Shown in pieces: positions 198-55,539 of a stretch of 64,000 nt of DNA. Below the pieces are notes generated by a model, which worked only from the letters and a program-made list of their open reading frames with translations, was not told the DNA's origin and made no database searches. A program made the translations under genes and the position numbers. The DNA lies in assembly GCA_022703765.1 (NCBI GenBank), contig JAKJHQ010000001.1, positions 81,854-145,853 on the forward strand, given 5' to 3'. This DNA is from Candidatus Wallbacteria bacterium (GTDB lineage: Bacteria; Muiribacteriota; UBA9980). Position 1 is the first letter of the stretch; each line of letters opens with the position of its first letter.

Positions 198-980
198 CTA
201 TTTTCCCTTTCCGCCGCCTTTGCCGCCGCCTTTGCCGCCGCCTTTGCCGCCGCCCTTTCCTTTGTCGTCGCCTTTGCCCTTACCTCTGCCCATAATTTTT
301 TTACGGTCTTCACGGCTCAATTTTACGCGGCGCTCGACTTCGTTTTCAAATGAAAGCGAGCCGCCTAAGGATTTTTTAATATCCTGGCCTATTTTTTTCT
401 GCTTGTTCCCGCTTTCGGAATAAAAAAAAGTTATAGTTTCGCCCAGCGAATCCAGAAGGTCGCGCTTATAAAGATCGTAATAAGTATGGGTGCAAATCAC
501 ATCGTTTTTAAGCATGGAAACTTTCAGCGTTATATTTACGCAGATTATTATAACCCTCATCCCTTCGATAGTTTCCGACTCTATATATCCGTCGAACCCT
601 ACCGTATTTTTAAGAACCGGGTCGTTTTCTATTATGCGCTTAATGGATTTTTTCATCAATTCGACCGGATACGCGCATACGCCGCCTGCTTCGGAGCTGA
701 AAATCTGGCGGTCCTTATAGAACCTGGCGTCCCATGAATAAGCGAACGATTCCGAAAGCAGGAACGTGTGAATGGCCTCCGAAAGGCATTCGGCTTTGAT
801 GTTGAATATAAATTTAGAAGCCTGTCCGGTTTCTTCGCGCGTTATAAAAGTAAGCGAAGCGAGGCCTATGAATAAAACAGCGGCCATGCCGATAACAAGG
901 GCAAGGGCCATGCCGCGCCGCCCGGTTTTAACTCCGGCGGTATATTTTTTAAAACTCTTATCACATAGAAGAGTTGACAT
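198..980 (-). CDS. GspK-like pseudopilin/secretion protein with a C-terminal Gly-Lys low-complexity tail
   Basis: The N-terminus (RRGMALALVIGMAAVLFIGLASL) is basic then hydrophobic, like GspK. The C-terminus is KGKGGGKGGGKGGGKGGGKGK, encoded by tandem GCCGCCTTT-type repeats at 198-290. It sits between two pseudopilin genes. Confidence 0.4.
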   Translation of the reverse strand: MSTLLCDKSFKKYTAGVKTGRRGMALALVIGMAAVLFIGLASLTFITREETGQASKFIFNIKAECLSEAIHTFLLSESFAYSWDARFYKDRQIFSSEAGGVCAYPVELMKKSIKRIIENDPVLKNTVGFDGYIESETIEGMRVIIICVNITLKVSMLKNDVICTHTYYDLYKRDLLDSLGETITFFYSESGNKQKKIGQDIKKSLGGSLSFENEVERRVKLSREDRKKIMGRGKGKGDDKGKGGGKGGGKGGGKGGGKGK

Positions 981-1530
981 TTTTAAACCTCACAACGAAT
1001 ATGCTTCCGCTGTAATCTTTTTCGCCGCTATTTTTAAATTTGATTCCTACCATCAGAGCCCCGTAACTTAAAGCCGTAAAATTAACGCTTTCTACGTTTT
1101 TTATAAAAACCGGATAAATTTCTTCATCGGCCTTTTCGAGCGCGCCCGCCGCGTCGAAAGAAGCGAGGGCCCCGTTTTCGGCCTTTAAAACCACTATTCT
1201 GCCGTCAAGCTCGCGGAATTTCACATATCCGAGAGTTTTAACCGGAGCCGGTTCCAGTATTTCAACCGCTCTGGCAAGCCTTTTTTCTAAAAGCTGGTCA
1301 GCCGTCCTGTAAACTCTTTGCACAGCCACTTCTTCATTGAGGCCCGGAATTTTTTTAGAAAAATAATTAAAAATATAAAAACCTACGGTTATTACCATTG
1401 AAAAAAGCGCAATGGATATCAGGGTCTCAACCAGAGTAAAAGCCCTGCGGCCGGCGCCGCGCCGTTTGCAGCAGGCAATACTGCATGTTTTTTCGTTTGT
1501 TTTAGCGATTTTCATAAAATCAATAACCAT
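961..1530 (-). CDS. Prepilin-type N-terminal cleavage/methylation domain protein (T2SS/T4P pseudopilin)
   Basis: The motif RAFTLVETLISIALFSMVI is a G/A-FTLxE prepilin signature followed by a TM helix. The leader before the motif is unusually long, so the true start is uncertain. Confidence 0.55.
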   Translation of the reverse strand: MVIDFMKIAKTNEKTCSIACCKRRGAGRRAFTLVETLISIALFSMVITVGFYIFNYFSKKIPGLNEEVAVQRVYRTADQLLEKRLARAVEILEPAPVKTLGYVKFRELDGRIVVLKAENGALASFDAAGALEKADEEIYPVFIKNVESVNFTALSYGALMVGIKFKNSGEKDYSGSIFVVRFKNVNSSM

Positions 1531-24970: not shown

Positions 24971-25675
24971 CTATTGCTTTATAATAGACTTGAAAATAAA
25001 AAGAAAAATTTCGGAATCGAGGTCTTCTTCTTTCTTTTTACTTATTTGAATTTTTCCATTGGAAGAAATTTTCATGGTGCGAATGCCGAAAGGAGTATTT
25101 AAAACTCCTTTGACGCTTTTTACGTTGGAAGTGTAATTATGGAAAGGCGAAATATCGGCCAGAGTTTCCATTTTACCGTCGAAACGGAGTTTTTTGATGG
25201 TCGGATGCTCCATTTTATCGAAATCCATGGTCTTTATGAAAGCCATCTGGTCGGAAATTTTTAATATTTTTTCGGGGGTTATGAAAACGGGGCGCGGTTC
25301 GATCTTGCTGAATTTGAAGATAAGCGCAAGGCCGGATTTTACGCCGGAATTTTTTCCGAAAGTGATAAGAAGGTCTTTAAATATGACGAAATGCCCTTCT
25401 TCCACTACGTAAAGCTTTTGCGTTTGCACGCGGCCTTCTTCGAGGGCGTCTATTTCGTGGGCTACTATTTCTTTAAAACTTACCGCCATGGCGTTATCGG
25501 CGATAATTTCATTGTAAAAGCCCGGCTGGTTTTCATCGAGAGCGCACTGATTTTCTTTCAGGCTGACGAATTTAAAAAGGTTTTTAACGTCCTGGCAGGG
25601 GAATTCGTAAAACTGAAAAGAGTTGCTTTTAGAAGATATTACAAGACCGCCCTGATTCTGGTTTTGATTCGCCAT
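24971..25675 (-). CDS. Hypothetical protein
   Basis: ORF with no recognisable motifs. The start was moved to the internal Met to avoid overlap with tRNA-Lys. Confidence 0.3.
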   Translation of the reverse strand: MANQNQNQGGLVISSKSNSFQFYEFPCQDVKNLFKFVSLKENQCALDENQPGFYNEIIADNAMAVSFKEIVAHEIDALEEGRVQTQKLYVVEEGHFVIFKDLLITFGKNSGVKSGLALIFKFSKIEPRPVFITPEKILKISDQMAFIKTMDFDKMEHPTIKKLRFDGKMETLADISPFHNYTSNVKSVKGVLNTPFGIRTMKISSNGKIQISKKKEEDLDSEIFLFIFKSIIKQ

Positions 25676-25688
25676 AAGTTTCCCCCGC

Positions 25689-25761
25689 AAATAAAAAATG
25701 AGCCGTAAAGGACTCGAACCTTTAACCTAGTGATTAAGAGTCACTTGCTCTGCCAATTGAG
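25689..25761 (-). tRNA. tRNA-Lys (anticodon CTT)
   Basis: The reverse complement folds as a cloverleaf: acceptor GGGCCGT/ACGGCTC (with one G·U), D-stem GCTC/GAGC, anticodon stem AGTGA/TCACT with loop CTCTTAA, and T-arm AAAGG-TTCGAGT-CCTTT. Confidence 0.85.
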
Positions 25762-25870
25762 CTAACGGCCCACTTAATTTTTAATTTTCAGCTGATTATA
25801 CATCAAAAATCTTTAAAAAGCAAGATTTTTTTAAAAATATTCCAAAATTCATTGAGTTGCGTATGGCTTT

Positions 25871-27085
25871 GTGATAGAATCGATTCGTAAAACCTCAAAT
25901 AGAAAGGCGATTGAATTGAAAAAAGATAAAAACATCATATTTTACCCAAGCGGACATGGTTTCGGCCACGCCGTCAGGCAGATCGAAATCATAAAGGAAA
26001 TTTTCAAATACAACATCGAAAATAAGCGCGAACACAAGGTCATCGTTAGGACAACCGCCCCCGAATGGGTTTTCACTAATTCGCTCGGCTTGTTTTTTAA
26101 AAAGTTATATCCTTCGCGCGCGGCTGAAATACCTCTCTGGTTCAGCTACAGCCGCTCGCTCAACGACGTGGGAACGGTCCAGTCGGACAGCCTGAACATG
26201 GATATAGGCGCCACTTACGAGGCCGCACGAAACTTTTATTCTAACTTTAAAGAAAGAGCTGCCATGGAGGCCGAATTCATTAAATCGAGCCGCGCGGACT
26301 TCGTGGTAGGCGATATCCCGCCCCTGGCATTCGCGGCCGCAAAACTCGCGGGCGTCAGGTCGGCCGGCGTCACCAATTTTTCCTGGGACTTCATTTACGA
26401 AGAATTCGCCGCTGAAAATAAAGGATTCAACGAAATAATAGATACCGTCAGAAGCGGATACGAAAAATGCGGCATGCTGCTTAAATTGCCTTTCGCATGC
26501 CCGCTTCCGGCTTTTAAAAACATTTCGCCGGTTTCCATGATAGCCAGAAAGCCTTATATTTCAAAAGAAGAGGCCCTTAAAATATTAAATATGGCCCCTG
26601 CGGAATTCGAAGGCGTAACAACGGTTATGATAAGTTTCGGCGGATTCGACACCGGCGGCATAAGGCATGAAAATCTATCCGGATACGCCGGTAAATTAAT
26701 GTTTTTAACCACCATAGCGCCCGCGGCCGGCGAAAAATATCCGTCTAACGTTAAATTCATAGACACCAGCTCCGGGGCGATTTCGTTTGAAAATTTATTC
26801 ACGGTATTCGATATAATAGCCACCAAACCGGGATACGGCGTGGTGGGCGACATAATAGGCGCGGATTCGACATGCCTTTTTACCGACCGCGGCCGCTTCC
26901 GCGAATACGAGTACCTGGTGGATTTTCTCAAAAAGCACACGCGGTCTTCGGTTTATATATCAAGAAACGAATTATTGAACTGCGATTTCGAGCCGCGCAT
27001 AAAAGAGCTGCAATCGCAAATTAAAAAGCCCGAACCTATCGATACGCGCGGCGCCTATGAATGCGCCATGGCTATTATCGAATAA
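25871..27085 (+). CDS. GT-B fold glycosyltransferase-like protein (MurG/UDP-glycosyltransferase-like), tentative
   Basis: N-terminal IIFYPSGHGFGHAVRQ (a Gly-rich loop of the G-x-G-x-G-H type). The C-terminal TKPGYGVVGDIIGADSTCLF resembles the GT-B donor-binding region. Confidence 0.35.
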   Translation: MIESIRKTSNRKAIELKKDKNIIFYPSGHGFGHAVRQIEIIKEIFKYNIENKREHKVIVRTTAPEWVFTNSLGLFFKKLYPSRAAEIPLWFSYSRSLNDVGTVQSDSLNMDIGATYEAARNFYSNFKERAAMEAEFIKSSRADFVVGDIPPLAFAAAKLAGVRSAGVTNFSWDFIYEEFAAENKGFNEIIDTVRSGYEKCGMLLKLPFACPLPAFKNISPVSMIARKPYISKEEALKILNMAPAEFEGVTTVMISFGGFDTGGIRHENLSGYAGKLMFLTTIAPAAGEKYPSNVKFIDTSSGAISFENLFTVFDIIATKPGYGVVGDIIGADSTCLFTDRGRFREYEYLVDFLKKHTRSSVYISRNELLNCDFEPRIKELQSQIKKPEPIDTRGAYECAMAIIE

Positions 27086-27166: not shown

Positions 27167-27505
27167 TTAAGCTTTGAACTGCTTGACGGCGTCTTCTTCT
27201 TTTTCGAACACTTTAAAAATTGAATTAAAACCGGTTAATTTAAACACTTCATCGACCGTTCCGTGCAGGCCGCAAACGTAAATATCGCCCTGTTTGGCCT
27301 TTGCGCGTTTCGCCGACGCGAGGACGCCTCTAAGCCCGGCGCTGCTTATATATTCCAGTTCCTGAAAATTTACTACGAAAAAAAGGTTATTTTCAGCCAT
27401 TAATTCGCTCATCTTTTTTTCGAATTCCGGAGCCGAATTAGCGTCCATTCTTCCGTTAACGCCAAGGACGGAAACGTTTCCCTCTTTTTTTAACGATATC
27501 TGCAT
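27167..27505 (-). CDS. STAS-domain anti-sigma-factor antagonist (SpoIIAA-like)
   Basis: 112 aa. The conserved phospho-Ser context is ELEYISSAGLRGVL. Typical STAS length. Confidence 0.7.
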   Translation of the reverse strand: MQISLKKEGNVSVLGVNGRMDANSAPEFEKKMSELMAENNLFFVVNFQELEYISSAGLRGVLASAKRAKAKQGDIYVCGLHGTVDEVFKLTGFNSIFKVFEKEEDAVKQFKA

Positions 27506-27621
27506 ATTGACACCTCTTAATTATTATCTTGCCATGTTTAATATTTTAAATCATTATACATTAAGAAAAAAAAAAATTCAAGCAAAATGAATTTGGCGGC
27601 AACAATGAATTAGCAATCCCA

Positions 27622-30105
27622 TTATAAATACCGGCAACGCATTTCATAATCGGTAATTTTAACGCGGCGGCCCGGGCTCAATATTATGCCGCCGCAGTTT
27701 TGCGAATCAAACAGTTTATAACCCAGATTTAAATATCTTTGCAGCGCCTCTTTATGCGGATGCCCGAACTTATTCGACGCGCCGCTGGAAATAAAAGCCG
27801 CTCCGGCCCCGCAGGCCGATAAAAATTCGGCGCCGGATGAGTATTTAGAGCCATGATGCGGCGCTTTTATAAAATCGAACCCGGTTTCGCCTATTTTTTT
27901 AATAAGGGGTTTTTCGGCCGCGCCGGTGATATCGCCGCAAAAAAGCGCGGCGCGATTATTAACCCGGACCGCCGCCACCAGTGAAGAATCGTTGGCATCT
28001 TCATTAGAGCCGGTTTCCGGCCATAAAAATTCGAGCACCGCTCCGTCGCAATTAATCTTTTCGCCCGCCGAAACGCTTTTTACGCCGCGCGCGATGCTTA
28101 GTAGTTTTTTAAATTCAATTTCTTCGCGGCCGGTTTCATGATAAAGCAGATTCTTGATTTTTATTTTCGGATTTTTATATAAATTCAACGCGCCGCAATA
28201 GTGGTCCATGTGCGCATGCGTAATTATCAAATATTCGATTTCATCGATCTGGCGGTATCTTAAATACGGGGCGATAACTTTAGAATATGCCGATCGGCCG
28301 CCGCCAGCGTCGATGATTATCCATTTACGGCCGGAAGTCTTCACCAGCGCGCAATCGCCCTGGCCGACGTCGAGAAATATCATTTCCGCGCCTTCCATCG
28401 ATTTAACCGCGAAGCCTCGAATATTAAAAAGCGCTAATATTATAAGCGCGGCCGCCGCTAATTTTGCCGGCGTAAGTTCGGCCCCGCGCGCGAAGCGGAA
28501 CGCTAAAAACGCCAGGAACAAATATATTGCCGCCATTTCGAAAAACCCGAGTTTATATATGGCGATATTTCCCATCGGCAGAGAAGAAAGCCATTCGTTT
28601 AACTTTAGCGCTGCGAAGGTTACGTGGTATATAAGCGAAGCAGCGCCCCAGGCCAGCCATGAGCTGAAAAAAGAAAAAAATATAAAAATCAGGCAGAGCG
28701 CGAGCAATATTTCATATATCCATAAAGTAAAAATATTTGCGGGCAGCGAGTTAAGCGGAAAATAGCCAGATATAAAAGAAATCAGCGGATAAGATGCCGC
28801 CATGGCGATAAAGCTGATTTTGCAATAATCCATAATAGCATTTAAATAAGGGCTTTTTAAAAAATTTATTTCATAATCGCATGCCGCTATGATTGCGAAA
28901 GTGGAAATATAAGAAAGCCAGAAACCCGCGCTGAAGATAAATCTTGGAAATAAAACGATGTGGAAAAAAAGCGCGGCTATAAAAATATTGTATTTATTCA
29001 CGCCGCGCTCCAATGCTCCGCAGGCGGCAGCCGCAGCAAAAGAGATATATGCGCGGGTCACGGCGGCCTGAAACCCCGTAATCAAAAAATAAACGCTCAC
29101 AAACGTAAAAGCCGCCAGTGAAGCCTTTCTCGAATCGACATTCAGCGCCGAAAGCGCCGATAAAATAAACGCCGCCAGAAGCGTCACGTGGCCGCCGCTT
29201 ACTACCAGAACGTGCAGAAGGCCGCTTTCGGTGAATTCGAAAATTTCGTCGTTGTCCAGATATATATTTTCGCCGAGCGCCGAAGAATCTCCGAGCGCGA
29301 ATGCCCTGAGAAAACCCGAAACGCCGGGCGGAAAATATTTTTCGAACAGCCCTTTCACTTTATTTTTAATCGAGGCCGCGAAAGAGCCGCTTTTTTTAAT
29401 TATCTTCACCCCGCCGGCCGGAGCGGTAAGAACGTATAAAATTTCATGCTGCAGGGGATTGTAATTTATCGGAAGATGAGGGTTTTTATATTTATGCATC
29501 CGTTTCACTATTCCCGAAACTTCCACCAGATCGTTTTCTTCGAGTCCGCCGGACCCGGATGCGGATTCCGTCAGGCCGCCTTCTTCTGCTTCGCAGCGCA
29601 AAAATATCCGGCCGTATATATTTTTAAAAGCGCCGCTTTTAGCGTCGTAAAGTTTTTCCACATCGAGCGCGGCGGTAAGATAGTTTTTTCCATATTCCCC
29701 GCCGTTATGATTTTCGACACTAACCGTCGAACCCGTAACCTTTATGAAAGCGTCCTGCTTTAAAACGCGGTTTATGCCGTTAGATATATAAGCAGTTTCG
29801 GCCGCGCACCGGAGCATGGCGCATAAAAAAACTGCCGCCATCAATAAAAACGCGGTGTAAATTCCGCCTGAAAATTCCCGACCTTTTATTCCTCCTTCGC
29901 AGCCAGCGGGAGTTTTAAAATAGTCTTCAGCCGCAAAAGCTCGTTTTTTATAAACAGCCATAGCGCCGGCCGCCGCCGCTAAAAATGCGATAATAGCTAT
30001 GGCTGCGCGCCGGGCCGTCATGGCCGGCGCGCATAAAATCCCCAGAATATAAAATATTATTATAGATAAAAGCTTATAATTCATACCGCGCCTTAAACCG
30101 CGCAA
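27622..30105 (-). CDS. comEC: DNA internalization competence protein ComEC/Rec2 (with a C-terminal metallo-beta-lactamase domain)
   Basis: Polytopic membrane core (competence domain) plus a C-terminal MBL motif (ITHAHMDHYCG). 827 aa. The start may instead be the Met at 30084. Confidence 0.8.
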   Translation of the reverse strand: MRGLRRGMNYKLLSIIIFYILGILCAPAMTARRAAIAIIAFLAAAAGAMAVYKKRAFAAEDYFKTPAGCEGGIKGREFSGGIYTAFLLMAAVFLCAMLRCAAETAYISNGINRVLKQDAFIKVTGSTVSVENHNGGEYGKNYLTAALDVEKLYDAKSGAFKNIYGRIFLRCEAEEGGLTESASGSGGLEENDLVEVSGIVKRMHKYKNPHLPINYNPLQHEILYVLTAPAGGVKIIKKSGSFAASIKNKVKGLFEKYFPPGVSGFLRAFALGDSSALGENIYLDNDEIFEFTESGLLHVLVVSGGHVTLLAAFILSALSALNVDSRKASLAAFTFVSVYFLITGFQAAVTRAYISFAAAAACGALERGVNKYNIFIAALFFHIVLFPRFIFSAGFWLSYISTFAIIAACDYEINFLKSPYLNAIMDYCKISFIAMAASYPLISFISGYFPLNSLPANIFTLWIYEILLALCLIFIFFSFFSSWLAWGAASLIYHVTFAALKLNEWLSSLPMGNIAIYKLGFFEMAAIYLFLAFLAFRFARGAELTPAKLAAAALIILALFNIRGFAVKSMEGAEMIFLDVGQGDCALVKTSGRKWIIIDAGGGRSAYSKVIAPYLRYRQIDEIEYLIITHAHMDHYCGALNLYKNPKIKIKNLLYHETGREEIEFKKLLSIARGVKSVSAGEKINCDGAVLEFLWPETGSNEDANDSSLVAAVRVNNRAALFCGDITGAAEKPLIKKIGETGFDFIKAPHHGSKYSSGAEFLSACGAGAAFISSGASNKFGHPHKEALQRYLNLGYKLFDSQNCGGIILSPGRRVKITDYEMRCRYL

Positions 30106-31214
30106 GCGGCCTTTACAAGCTGCTCGAGCCTGCTTCTCACGGGTCCTGCGTCCTTGATCATAAGCCTGATATTATCTTTACCCTGCGCTATTTTTTCGTT
30201 ATCCATGCTGTACCAGGCGCCGTTTTTTTCGATTATCCCCCTGTCCAGGGCTATATTTATAAGATCGCTTTCGTATGAAATTCCGTCGTTGAAAAGCAGT
30301 TCCAGTTCGGTATGCCTGAAAGGCATCGCGCACTTGTTCTTTATTATTTTAGCCCTTATTTTTATTCCGACCGGGCTTTCGCCGTTTTTAATGGTTTCTA
30401 TCTTTCTTACCTCCATTCTCACGGAAGAAAAAAACTTCAACGCCCTTCCGCCGGGGGTGGTTTCGGACCCGCCGAACATGCTGCCTATCTTGTCGCGCAG
30501 CTGATTTATAAATATCACGCTGCAGGAATGGTTCGACGCGAGCGAGGTCAGCCGCCTTAACGCCGAAGCCATAAGCCGCGCGTGCAGGCCGACCTGTATT
30601 TCTCCGCTATTGGCCTCTATTTCCGCTCTGGGCACTATCGCTGCCACCGAATCGATAACCACGAGATTCACCGCGCCGCTTTTAACCAGGTCGTTGCATA
30701 TATCGAAGCATTCTTCGCCTGAAGCAGGTTGTGAAACTAGAAGTTTTGAAAGATCCACGCCTATTTTTTTCGCATAATTTATATCCAGCGCGTGCTCTGC
30801 GTCTATAAACGCCGCTATTTTTCCGCTCTTTTGAAAATTAGCTATGATATTAAGCGTCAGCGTGGTTTTTCCGCTCGATTCGGGGCCGTAGAGCTCGATT
30901 ATCCTTCCGGAAGGGAGGCCGCCTATCCCGAGCGCGGCGTCGAGAGAAATTATTCCGGTAGATATTGGTTCATAAATACTTTTATCGTCGGGCCGGCTGT
31001 CTTCATAGCTAAATATGCTTCCGCGCCCGAATTTTTTCAGTATCTGCTGTTTTATAAGCGAAAGTTCCTGTGCTTCTTTTCCGCGGTCATTTTCGCAATT
31101 AACTTCGGCCTTTGCGTCAGGTTTAGTTTCAGCCTTTTTTTCACAATTTTCGATTGTCCCGGCCTGAGATTTTAATGCCGCGCTTTTTACCGCCTTAAAT
31201 TTTTCAATACCCAT
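30093..31214 (-). CDS. recA: Recombinase RecA (with an ~45-aa N-terminal extension)
   Basis: Walker A ELYGPESSGKTTLTL, FIDAEHALD, and the L1/L2 loop regions. It is nested between comEA and comEC on the same strand. Confidence 0.9.
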   Translation of the reverse strand: MGIEKFKAVKSAALKSQAGTIENCEKKAETKPDAKAEVNCENDRGKEAQELSLIKQQILKKFGRGSIFSYEDSRPDDKSIYEPISTGIISLDAALGIGGLPSGRIIELYGPESSGKTTLTLNIIANFQKSGKIAAFIDAEHALDINYAKKIGVDLSKLLVSQPASGEECFDICNDLVKSGAVNLVVIDSVAAIVPRAEIEANSGEIQVGLHARLMASALRRLTSLASNHSCSVIFINQLRDKIGSMFGGSETTPGGRALKFFSSVRMEVRKIETIKNGESPVGIKIRAKIIKNKCAMPFRHTELELLFNDGISYESDLINIALDRGIIEKNGAWYSMDNEKIAQGKDNIRLMIKDAGPVRSRLEQLVKAACAV

Positions 31215-31329
31215 TCGACACCCCTTTACTTTTTAATTTAGCCCGATTTTTTATATACAAATCTCTAAATACAAACTATTCATAACAAGCCGTTCGCTAT
31301 GCACTTCAAACTTCACACCGCATGAGCTG

Positions 31330-31947
31330 TCAGTATATTACAAAATGCTTATTAAGCTTGCGCATTCTTTTCTTGCCGATGCCTTCTATCGCGCCTAGAG
31401 ATTTTAAAGATTCGATTCTTCCGCCGTTATTTCGCCTGAATTCGATAATTTTTTCACCCACCTTTGCGCCGACGCCTTTGATATTTTTGAAATCTTCCAC
31501 GGAAGCCGAATTAATATCTATTTTAGGTTCCTGCGGGTTTTCGGCGTTTGCATAAAGTTCGAATTCCTGCGGATCGTCTATCTGCGGCGAAGGATCGTCC
31601 GCCACCATAATTTTATCTTTAACGGCTTCATACAAACGTTCTCCGATGCCTCCTACTTTTTTTATTTCGCATCTGGTTTTAAATCCGGAATTTTTTTCCC
31701 GGTATGCTATTATCTTTGCCGCCATGGCGGGCCCTACGCCTTTAAGCGCCATAAGTTCCGCCGCCTGGCATGTGTTTATGTCGAGCGGAAAATTTGCGCT
31801 TTCGATAACTTCGGGCGCAGTGCCTTCGGAACCGGCCGCCCATTGGGAATATCCGGAGCACAGGTTGATAAAAATTCCGAGCGCCGAAACCGCGCAAATA
31901 ATAAAAATAAGTCTGGACTCTTCCTTTGAAAATTTTAAAAATTCCAT
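31330..31947 (-). CDS. comEA: Competence protein ComEA (tandem helix-hairpin-helix DNA-binding domains)
   Basis: N-terminal TM anchor. Two HhH units: LMALKGVGPAMAAKII and FKNIKGVGAKVGEKIIEF. Confidence 0.75.
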   Translation of the reverse strand: MEFLKFSKEESRLIFIICAVSALGIFINLCSGYSQWAAGSEGTAPEVIESANFPLDINTCQAAELMALKGVGPAMAAKIIAYREKNSGFKTRCEIKKVGGIGERLYEAVKDKIMVADDPSPQIDDPQEFELYANAENPQEPKIDINSASVEDFKNIKGVGAKVGEKIIEFRRNNGGRIESLKSLGAIEGIGKKRMRKLNKHFVIY

Positions 31948-32387
31948 TGAACCGCCTCCATTAATTTAATATTTCCTTTTCATTTCGAGCGATTAGTGTA
32001 AAACCGTCGCCTAATCCGATACATTTCAAAGTTACTTTCCATAAAACAAGTTTTGTGCCATAAAAAATATCTTCAAAAAGCCTTTAAAACCGTGTTCCGT
32101 TTTCACCAATTCTCATTTTGAGATTTCTTTAAATTAGTTAATTCACTATTTAAGGCTGTTTAAGGCAAAAAATACCGATATCGTTTTAAGACTTAATTCT
32201 CAAAACGATACCAGAGCATTTTTTTGGCTCTTTTTTTGTGTGGGAAGTTTGTCAGTGGATAGTGAATAGTTTTAGAATATTATTTAAAATTTAAATAAGT
32301 TCCTTTGTGCTTTAGCGGGTAGTTTTGGGCAGGGTGCCAGACAAGTTTTTTCGGGGACGCGTTCTAAAATCCCTCCGGGATTTTAGC

Positions 32388-32487
32388 CGCTTGAGCTCAG
32401 CGCCTCACGCCCATCCCGGGCTTCGGCGCTTCCGCTACACCCCTCAAAAATTTTGTCTGGCCCCTGCTATAAGCTTAAAATCAACTT
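32388..32487. repeat. Degenerate direct repeat, copy 1 (~100 bp), containing local hairpins
   Basis: Shares ...CCCATCC...GGGCT(T/C)CGGCG(C/A)TTCCGCTACACCCCT(C/T)AAAAATT...TCTGGCCCCTGCTA(T/C)AAGCTTAAAATCAACTT with copy 2. GCCAGACAA at 32337 can pair with TTGTCTGGC at 32452. Confidence 0.6.
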
Positions 32488-32582: not shown

Positions 32583-32708
32583 CTCCGAGCTCCGATCCCG
32601 CCCATCCGACAGACATGGATGGCAAGGAGGCGGCCTTGGGCTCCGGCGATTCCGCTACACCCCTTCAAAAATTATTCTGGCCCCTGCTACAAGCTTAAAA
32701 TCAACTTT
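32583..32708. repeat. Degenerate direct repeat, copy 2
   Basis: See copy 1. About 85% identity over the 3' 70 bp, with an insertion containing the hairpin CCATCCgacagacatGGATGG. Confidence 0.6.
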
Positions 32709-32809
32709 AACAATGGATTACAACCTGAAAGTTCTTTTTATAGGCTGGTTAACACAAAAGCCTACTATAAAACCATAATTTTGACTAACCAGCAAGCCAT
32801 TATTGCTGC

Positions 32810-54391: not shown

Positions 54392-55539
54392 ATGAATATT
54401 GAATTAAATAATTTAAAAGAATCTACGGCATTTTTAAATACGCTTATAGATAATATCACCTCCGCCATTTTTATCGTTGACAATAACATGGAAGTGCGCA
54501 GCTTTAACGATTCGTTCAAGGCCCTTTTTAACGCCAGCGAGGCCGAAACGCTCATTAAAAGATGCGGAAACGCCATCGGCTGCTATTACGCCATCACCGA
54601 AAACAAGCAGTGCGGCGACACTTCGTACTGCACCGTATGCTCCCTCAGAAAATCCCTTATTACTGCGCTCACTAAAAAAGTACCGGCCTACCGAGAAAAA
54701 CTTATAAGAGAGTTTTATATCGACGGCGTTAAAACACTCAAGCATCTTAGATACACGACAAAATATATTGACTGGAACGGCTCCACCATGGTGCTTGTTA
54801 TAGTTGACGACATAACCGAAATCGAAACGCAAAAAATTAAATTCGAAGAATTGAACGAACAGAAAAACAAGCTGCTCGGAATGGCCGCGCACGATCTTAG
54901 AAACCCCATAAGCGTCGTCAATATGTACTCAAGAGCTTCATACTCGAAGATTTAAGCGACACGAAAAGCCAGTACGCGGACTTCGTGATGGAAATCAACA
55001 ACGCCAGCAAATTCATGCTCACGCTTCTTTCCGACATACTCGACCTTTCAAAAATCGAGGCCGGAAACCTCGATCTCAAAATAAAAGAACACGACTATAA
55101 AGCGTTTTTAGAACATAATATAAAATTGAACCTGGTCATCGCCGAAAAGAAAAAAATTTCCGTCGGGCTCGAATACGCCGCGGAACTAAAAGTAATAAAA
55201 TTTGATAAATACAAGCTGGAGCAGGTTTTAAATAATCTAATAGGAAACGCTATTAAATATTCTTATCCCGAAACCAGGATCACGGTGAAAGTAAGCTCGC
55301 CGCATGAAGGAAAAATACTCACCGAAATCATAGACGAGGGCCAGGGAATACCCGCGGAAGAACTCGAAAACATATTCGTGGAATTCAACAAATCGAGCGT
55401 GCAGTCTACTGGCGGCGAAAAAAGCACTGGACTCGGCCTCGCCATTTCAAAAAGAATCATCGAAGGTCATAACGGAAAAATATCGGTGACAAGCGAAGTG
55501 AAAAAAGGATCTAATTTTTATTTCGAACTGCCTTTATAA
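54392..55539 (+). pseudogene. Frameshifted sensor histidine kinase (Cys-rich PAS-like sensor + HisKA + HATPase_c)
   Basis: ORF 54392-54955 ends inside the HisKA H-box (MAAHDLRNPISVVNMYSRAS...). A frame-B ORF is open from 54901 and continues ILEDLSDTKSQYADFV... through HATPase_c (GTGLGLAISKRI). One -1 shift near 54940 joins the two frames. Confidence 0.6.

Follow-up and report, generated by a model that had tools for sequence, protein, structure and literature searches.

A recA gene enclosed by comEA and comEC, behind a candidate sigma-54-type promoter, in an uncultured lineage related to Candidatus Wallbacteria

Bacteria that import DNA must pass the incoming single strand to RecA, and model organisms link uptake to recombination by shared regulation of separate operons. 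In Streptococcus pneumoniae, the competence-induced cinA-recA-dinF-lytA operon and a separate celA/celB (comEA/comEC) operon share the sigma factor ComX; the comE operon of Bacillus subtilis has the order comEA-comEB-comEC and is read from one competence-regulated promoter upstream of comEA; and the type IV pilin gene pilA of Pseudomonas aeruginosa and Myxococcus xanthus has sigma-54/PilR-dependent promoters. The locus described here lies in a 64,000-nucleotide (nt) stretch of a Candidatus Wallbacteria assembly (contig JAKJHQ010000001.1, positions 81,854 to 145,853), hereafter the window. On its minus strand a comEA-like gene (31947–31330) is followed by recA (31214–30093), by comEC (ending at 27622) and by a STAS-domain gene (27505–27167); the open reading frames (ORFs) lie exactly where a preliminary description of this DNA had placed them. 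The interest of the locus is that recA appears to be built into the uptake operon itself, that this arrangement is kept across a deep uncultured lineage, and that it stands behind a sigma-54-type promoter motif; literature searches turned up neither the order comEA-recA-comEC nor a comEA or recA gene that depends on sigma-54. With a probability of roughly 0.6, we read the three genes as an activator-dependent operon that co-expresses the DNA receptor, the recombinase and the channel. It is a new layout of known competence genes, not a new kind of system, and the known mechanism of transformation is unchanged by it.

The comEA-like gene (31330–31947, minus strand) encodes a predicted membrane-anchored DNA receptor of 205 amino acids (aa) with a tandem, double helix-hairpin-helix (HhH) arrangement, HhH2 (Pfam HHH_3, E = 1.8e-34). 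The protein has a hydrophobic N-terminal helix, LIFIICAVSALGIFINLC, and two HHH_3 domains at residues 55–113 and approximately 141–204; the HhH repeats are 38% identical to each other across 34 aa. It scores 88.8 bits against TIGR00426, the model of the ComEA HhH region (cutoff 53.1), and 103.1 against the full-length model TIGR01259, under the cutoff of 152.35; the Bacillus-type full-length architecture is not matched, no SLBB domain was found, and Pfam gave no other domain N-terminal of the first HhH2. The product of comEC (27622–30084, minus strand; 820 aa counted from ATG 30084), the predicted DNA channel, combines a Competence domain (PF03772, E = 1.7e-35) with a metallo-beta-lactamase nuclease domain (Lactamase_B, PF00753, E = 3.6e-18), contains the HxHxDH motif in the form THAHMDH, and scores 198 against TIGR00361 (ComEC/Rec2; cutoff 190). 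An N-terminal region of approximately 270 residues is present in the window protein; the DUF4131 (PF13567) OB-fold went unreported for it at E ≤ 1e-3 and was recorded for the orthologue in one of the related loci introduced below (L103).

The middle gene, recA (30093–31214, minus strand; 373 aa), encodes a complete but divergent RecA core. The protein matches the RecA equivalog TIGR02012 over its full length with 428.7 bits (cutoff 325.3) and the Pfam families RecA (PF00154, E = 1.6e-107) and RecA_C (E = 1.5e-15); a relative of it is named simply RecA by NCBI. The Walker A motif GPESSGKT, the catalytic glutamate of FIDAEHALD, the Walker B motif VIDSVAA, the glutamine of FINQ and the KNK motif are present and invariant in the clade, and the loops L1 and L2 can be recognized in the alignment with Escherichia coli and other RecAs, the GG of L2 being kept. 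Clade-specific substitutions occur in L1 and after it (GE.Q..L.ARLMAS versus the usual GD.H..L.ARLMSQ). Judged by model scores and alignments, the clade RecA is a long-branch form: the RecAs of the window and of three relatives (P0004, P0010, P0012) score 429–444 bits against TIGR02012, whereas those of E. coli, two actinobacteria, a Bacteroides and P0016 reach 538–576, which leaves the window protein approximately 110–145 bits below the canonical RecAs. In pairwise comparison, the window RecA is 49–54% identical to canonical RecAs and the cores of the four clade RecAs are 48–56% identical to the canonical set, versus 57–85% within that set. The long branch was considered as proof of paralogy and is weakened in this role, since four more proteins encoded in the window (IspD, MurC, IspE and SelB) likewise come out close to or under their equivalog cutoffs, which suggests that the lineage is divergent in general.

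Both ends of the clade RecA depart from the canonical form. The N-terminal extension, which the preliminary description had put at about 45 aa, comprises 48 residues (DNA 31214–31071), is rich in lysine and glutamate with 10 positive and 9 negative charges, and is predicted by AlphaFold2 to be disordered (predicted local distance difference test, pLDDT, below 50 for residues 1–48), with a short helix at residues 7–13. The extension can be taken as real since a strong Shine-Dalgarno sequence, in the arrangement AAAGGGG-N7-ATG, precedes the first ATG here and a similar one does so in seven relatives (L007–L013). Alignment with homologs, which the preliminary description had proposed, finds it across the clade, with lengths of approximately 25–74 residues among those measured and a shorter version in L010 (overall roughly 20–75); the extensions are of mixed charge and low complexity, and start with a conserved M-x-x-E-K-x-K. 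At the other end, the protein terminates in ...VKAACAV directly after the C-terminal domain; the acidic tail is absent here, in the eight clade members compared, and in L012. An acidic C-terminal regulatory tail is typical of many RecAs but does not define the family.

Two further RecA sequences deserve mention. The canonical RecA most similar to that of the clade, P0015 (L106 and L107), stands in the context ftsK-rimO-pgsA-cinA-recA-recX and may represent the nearest outgroup state; it shares the L2-region signature ETTPGGRALKFFSSVRMD with the clade RecA, carries a Lys-rich N-terminal extension, and retains the acidic C-terminal tail. P0014 (L022, ENA ERZ27257423 k141_812518) had looked like a hint of a second recA and was rejected as an assembly chimera, not a hybrid gene: its first 189 residues are identical to the clade RecA of L012, and its remainder is a high-GC canonical recA (GC content at third codon positions 0.88 versus 0.58) with recX downstream of it. 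Chimeras of this kind, at conserved recA motifs, could mislead marker-gene analyses.

The clade as sampled comprises 11 loci: the window, L007–L013 from a scan of species genomes, and L103–L105, which were reached via the RecA homologs P0005, P0010 and P0013. The order and orientation comEA-recA-comEC are identical in all 11 lineages, and for L103–L105 the order is backed by independent gene calls and Pfam labels. Identity to the window proteins across L007–L013 ranges from 64 to 93% for RecA, from 33 to 80% for ComEC and from 41 to 97% for ComEA; in L011–L013, L104 and L105 only the trio is retained, amid a wholly different set of flanking genes. The exact window RecA with the same neighbors also occurs on contigs of the anaerobic-digester samples JGI 3300010355 and 3300010351, in ENA and Logan assemblies, and in the metagenome-assembled genome GCA_029557635.1. 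The related species-representative genomes are all metagenome-assembled genomes of uncultured organisms, and include bacterium UBP16_UBA6123 and one Candidatus Wallbacteria (phylum Candidatus Walliibacteriota). As background, 88 unrelated recA loci were assembled from 8 Bacteroidales genomes and 80 metagenome contigs, the latter from a metagenome scan with the clade RecA alignment that, being based on peptides common to all RecAs, recovered canonical recA loci only. Hidden Markov models (HMMs) built from the clade ComEA and ComEC found no ComEA- or ComEC-like ORF in the flanks of any of these 88 loci, among which 56 offer 2.5 kb or more of downstream sequence and 64 offer 1 kb or more upstream; as a positive control, the same models recover both genes in L103–L105, loci outside the HMM building set. 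Set against this background, the gene arrangement is, by all indications from the sequences, more than chance.

The junctions within the trio are mostly tight. The preliminary description had claimed a 13-nt overlap of recA and comEC, which arises only with TTG 30105, the start of the longest ORF; the start chosen by metagenome gene callers and marked by the conserved ComEC N-terminus (..INYKLL..) is ATG 30084, 8 nt past the recA stop, and the overlap becomes an 8-nt gap. In 10 of the 11 loci the two genes either overlap, by TAATG in L007 and by 14 nt in L103, or are separated by 2–26 nt. A strong Shine-Dalgarno sequence stands before recA in every locus and is absent before comEC in most; the closeness of the comEC start to the recA stop, usually without a Shine-Dalgarno sequence of its own, suggests translational coupling of comEC to recA. 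Between comEA and recA, the window has an AT-rich spacer of 115 nt (31215–31329, minus strand) that ends in the recA Shine-Dalgarno sequence AAAGGGG. Elsewhere this spacer shrinks to 50 nt (L103), 39 nt (L010 and L105) and 10 nt (L104), the last of which reads in full TAAGGAGGATCACATG. A consensus scan of the minus strand of the window detected neither promoter-like nor terminator-like sites between the three genes, and L104 lacks a sigma-70-like promoter before recA. Two candidate elements of the spacer were rejected: a conserved sigma-70 promoter, which is missing from the coding strand of the window and from L104 and is matched unconvincingly in the other AT-rich spacers, and a LexA/SOS box of the Cheo type, for which inspection by eye yielded imperfect, unconserved GAAC..GTT-like strings in two loci.

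Upstream of comEA, the window contains a sigma-54-type promoter motif, TGGCACAAAACTTGTTT, at 32044–32060 on the minus strand, with GG at position -24 and TTGT at -12. It lies approximately 113 nt upstream of comEA, and the transcription start predicted near 32034 would leave an 87-nt leader. The pattern YGGCAY-N5-TTGTYW has a single match in the 64-kb window, at 32060–32044, where 0.10 would be expected; the pattern GGCA[CT]-N5-TTG[TC] occurs exactly once per locus in all 11 clade loci, on the coding strand and 44–127 nt before the comEA start. A narrower pattern, YGGCAY-N5-TTGT, does not cover the TTGC variant seen in L104 and L105; in 633 kb of unrelated recA loci it has 8 matches. The consensus of sigma-54 promoters is TGGCACG-N4-TTGCW; the GG at -24 and the sigma-54 spacing are found in all 11 loci, and the GC-rich loci L104 and L105 carry the canonical form CGGCACG-N4-TTGC[AT], as CGGCACGGCGATTGCA and CGGCACGGCGTTTGCT.

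Short palindromes accompany the promoter motif. In the window, the perfect 13-bp palindrome TCTCAAAATGAGA (32111–32123, no mismatches) lies approximately 58 nt upstream of the -24 element and is a candidate activator-binding site. Each of the 11 clade loci has copies of T[ACG]TC[AG]-N3-[TC]GA[GTA]A in the approximately 265 nt before comEA, and palindromes of the TCTCA-N3-TGAGA type recur in one to three copies per locus, 50–150 nt upstream of the promoter motif; of 27 plus-strand palindrome matches in approximately 119 kb scanned, 20 fall into the approximately 3.3 kb upstream of comEA, an enrichment of about 100-fold relative to the remaining sequence of the loci. Farther upstream in the window, two inverted copies of the 13-bp motif form a hairpin, TATCGTTTTGAGA / TCTTAAAACGATA (32175–32214, minus strand), followed by a T-run; the hairpin has 17 pairs in a scan for terminator-like structures, contains a motif match at 32198–32210 (263 nt from comEA), and is conserved in L007. 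It is a candidate for a distal enhancer site (upstream activator sequence, UAS), for a terminator that would shield the operon against transcripts arriving from upstream, or for both. Terminator-like hairpins just upstream can also be seen in several clade loci, and would isolate the unit from upstream transcription in the same manner. The upstream layout as a whole is, by inference from these motifs, that expected of an enhancer-dependent promoter.

The non-coding stretch of 1.2 kb upstream of comEA, which has no credible Rfam match, also holds a very stably folding 151-nt element (32325–32475, minus strand; -79 kcal/mol, z = -6.5) with a closing stem of 24 bp. A partial second copy lies 220–250 nt away at 32638–32801, and the window contains no other copy; the element is conserved in L007, there with an internal insertion of approximately 110 nt. 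It matches no Rfam family, and could be a miniature inverted-repeat transposable element (MITE)-like element or a structured RNA of a new type.

Taken together, the shared strand, the short gaps, the absence of an internal terminator and the single upstream promoter motif are the features by which an operon is recognized. In the lineage related to Candidatus Wallbacteria and UBP16, the three genes would thus be transcribed as one unit from the sigma-54 (RpoN)-type promoter approximately 113 nt upstream of comEA, switched on by an enhancer-binding activator that occupies the 13-bp palindromes upstream of it. An activated cell would make the membrane-anchored double-HhH ComEA, RecA and the ComEC channel/nuclease together; comEC translation is probably coupled to that of recA, so that the channel would be made in a constant proportion to the recombinase and well below it in amount. 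ComEC would bring single-stranded DNA into the cytoplasm, where the embedded RecA would load the incoming strands for homologous recombination. This RecA is most likely the only one of the lineage; as such it would have been remodeled, losing the autoinhibitory acidic C-terminal tail and gaining the disordered N-terminal extension with its M-x-x-E-K-x-K start. The use of sigma-54, co-transcription, the activator, translational coupling and a role in natural transformation are all parts of this reading that we infer from gene order and motifs. The preliminary description had likewise seen a co-expressed module, and the conserved co-oriented unit, its tight junctions and the single upstream motif support this in part; its details of overlap and terminator were wrong. 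Strong internal promoters and terminators, which it had named as evidence to the contrary, were not found between the genes in the window; the conservation of the unit, its tight junctions, the lack of internal sites and the one sigma-54-type promoter motif per locus point away from them.

Several observations weigh against an activator-dependent operon. The junction of recA and comEC is loose in L013, where the genes are approximately 200 nt apart, and in the window, L007–L009 and L011–L013 the spacer between comEA and recA is 95–220 nt long, AT-rich and unconserved; an independent recA promoter could lie within it in the window and several relatives. The -12 element has GC in only 2 of the 11 loci (L104 and L105), and GT in the other nine, including the window. 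The window and the flanks of the relatives show neither an rpoN gene nor a gene for an enhancer-binding protein, GAFTGA and ESELFG signatures were missing from the window and every clade locus examined, and none of the window proteins scanned has a Sigma54_activat domain; with no such gene in the sequences covered, the window and the clade loci, sigma-54 use stays putative. It would also be strange for a housekeeping recA to be governed solely by a promoter that strictly requires an activator. Finally, ComEA and ComEC genes are found in many bacteria that have never been shown to be transformable.

Three other explanations compete with this operon. In the ancestor of the clade, a housekeeping recA could have been inserted by chance between the two uptake genes, the order being kept by inertia; recA would then be expressed mainly from a promoter in its own spacer, and read-through into comEC would be incidental. 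The long, unconserved AT-rich spacers just mentioned, the strong Shine-Dalgarno sequence of recA and its fully conserved core would fit such inherited synteny, and the long RecA branch needs no special explanation where other housekeeping proteins are divergent too. Inertia accounts poorly, however, for a trio that stays intact at ComEC identities down to 33% while both flanks have been replaced, for spacers of only 10 nt in L104 and 39–50 nt in three more loci, for a comEC that is tied to recA by position and probably by translation, and for a single conserved promoter motif ahead of the whole unit; we regard it as unlikely. A specialized second RecA for transformation, with a canonical recA elsewhere in the genome, for example in a cinA-recA-recX context, appears improbable to a similar degree. 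The bit scores and identities of the clade RecAs, well apart from the canonical set, would suit a paralog, as would the missing acidic tail, the N-terminal extension and an expression apparently tied to an activator-dependent promoter, and the nearest canonical RecA, P0015, does sit in the classic pgsA-cinA-recA-recX context. Yet the window and the flanks of the relatives (up to approximately 6 kb per side) show no second recA, and the apparent hybrid P0014 dissolved into a chimera; the low scores of several housekeeping proteins in the window point to lineage-wide divergence, the protein passes the RecA equivalog cutoff and a relative is annotated simply as RecA, and most bacteria carry a single recA.

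Instead of transformation as such, uptake might serve nutrition or supply templates for repair under stress, with RecA co-induced in an activator-controlled damage or stress response. Sigma-54 regulons often answer nutrient or stress signals, the metallo-beta-lactamase nuclease motif of ComEC is intact, and the 64-kb window holds no other competence-specific gene; but pure DNA catabolism offers no reason to place a recombinase between receptor and channel, and the conserved coupling of recA and comEC fits recombination of the imported strand better, so that this explanation is rather doubtful, and somewhat more so than either of the preceding two. About as doubtful is a more elaborate reading in which RecA would be purpose-built for transformation, as a second paralog or a re-engineered sole RecA, and in which the extension would act as a tether of roughly 20–75 flexible residues whose M-x-x-E-K-x-K end docks at the cytoplasmic face of ComEC or at a partner such as DprA or SSB. 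If true, the recombinase would be made beside the channel and recruited to its exit, a coupled uptake-recombination line under a dedicated sigma-54 activator. The activator-dependent operon with a single, remodeled RecA remains the reading preferred here.

The STAS-domain gene downstream (27167–27505, minus strand), resembling genes for anti-sigma-factor antagonists, is a neighbor outside the conserved core. It has a sigma-70-like promoter of its own, TTGAAT-17-TATAAT at 27581–27553 on the minus strand, overlapping the T-run after comEC, and therefore appears to be a separate unit. It follows the trio in L007, L008, L010 and L103 and is absent in L011–L013 and L105, while L009 ends before this position; it thus adjoins the trio in closer relatives only. 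The terminator that the preliminary description had placed after comEC was not recovered: a consensus scan found no intrinsic terminator, the predicted fold of the region (-7 kcal/mol) is not more stable than that of shuffled sequence (z = +1.18), and an 11-T run is all that remains. Beyond the STAS gene, two conserved ORFs without Pfam or NCBIfam match (404 aa at 25871–27085, plus strand; 239 aa at 24971–25690, minus strand) flank a tRNA-Lys (25698–25772) and are kept beside the cluster in L007 and L008.

The pseudopilin genes that had been suggested at the start of the window, as a possible source of the pilus, reduce to one ORF (961–1530, minus strand) with a prepilin N-methylation motif; the other ORFs lack it. 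This prepilin-like ORF, 26 kb from the cluster, is the only other candidate competence gene in the 64-kb window. It belongs to a minus-strand group at 198–2281, together with a HEAT-repeat membrane protein (1553–2281) and a 260-aa protein (198–980), hydrophobic at its N-terminus and with a (GKGG)n tail at the other end; neither the sigma-54 motif of the comEA type nor the palindrome occurs upstream of this group. The remaining window is ordinary chromosome, with a Fe-hydrogenase module, histidine kinases, sugar-nucleotide and Mur ligase genes, a GH57 enzyme, selB, genes of the methylerythritol phosphate (MEP) pathway, and tRNAs. Directly downstream of selB, a PAS/HisKA/HATPase histidine kinase gene (54392–55539, plus strand) is split by a frameshift near 54940 into two ORFs (54392–54955 and 54985–55539), either as a pseudogene or by assembly error.

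If the activator-dependent operon is confirmed, the cluster would provide a genomic marker of transformation potential in a candidate phylum without a cultured member, its RecA would be a natural tail-less and N-terminally extended form useful for studies of RecA regulation, and the promoter-plus-palindrome signature could guide a search for the activator and for further genes of the competence regulon. Among described systems, the comE operon of B. subtilis is the closest in layout: in both, the receptor gene comes first, comEC comes last, a gene for a cytoplasmic protein occupies the middle, and all genes are co-oriented. In contrast to B. subtilis, where the middle gene is the dCMP deaminase gene comEB and the promoter is sigma-A-dependent and ComK-activated, the Wallbacteria-related clade has recA in the middle and a sigma-54-type promoter motif with palindromes, and its ComEA has a double HhH2 without SLBB and falls under the TIGR01259 cutoff. 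With S. pneumoniae the clade would share the joint induction of recA and the genes for DNA uptake; what S. pneumoniae brings about by regulating two operons together, the clade would bring about by gene order. Its recA is part of the proposed uptake operon, placed directly before comEC and apparently linked to it in translation, with neither cinA nor recX adjacent. Compared to the RecA of the canonical pgsA-cinA-recA-recX locus, the clade protein is likewise of orthologue grade, scoring above the TIGR02012 cutoff, but its gene has none of the neighbors ftsK, rimO, pgsA, cinA and recX, and the protein has a longer branch, lacks the acidic C-terminal tail and bears a disordered N-terminal extension. 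The pilA promoters of P. aeruginosa and M. xanthus, finally, resemble the clade promoter in joining -24/-12 elements and upstream activator sites (in the clade, a candidate promoter and candidate sites) to a component of the DNA-uptake machinery; they differ in serving a pilin gene, whereas comEA, recA and comEC would be the regulated genes here, behind a -12 element that mostly reads GT instead of GC.

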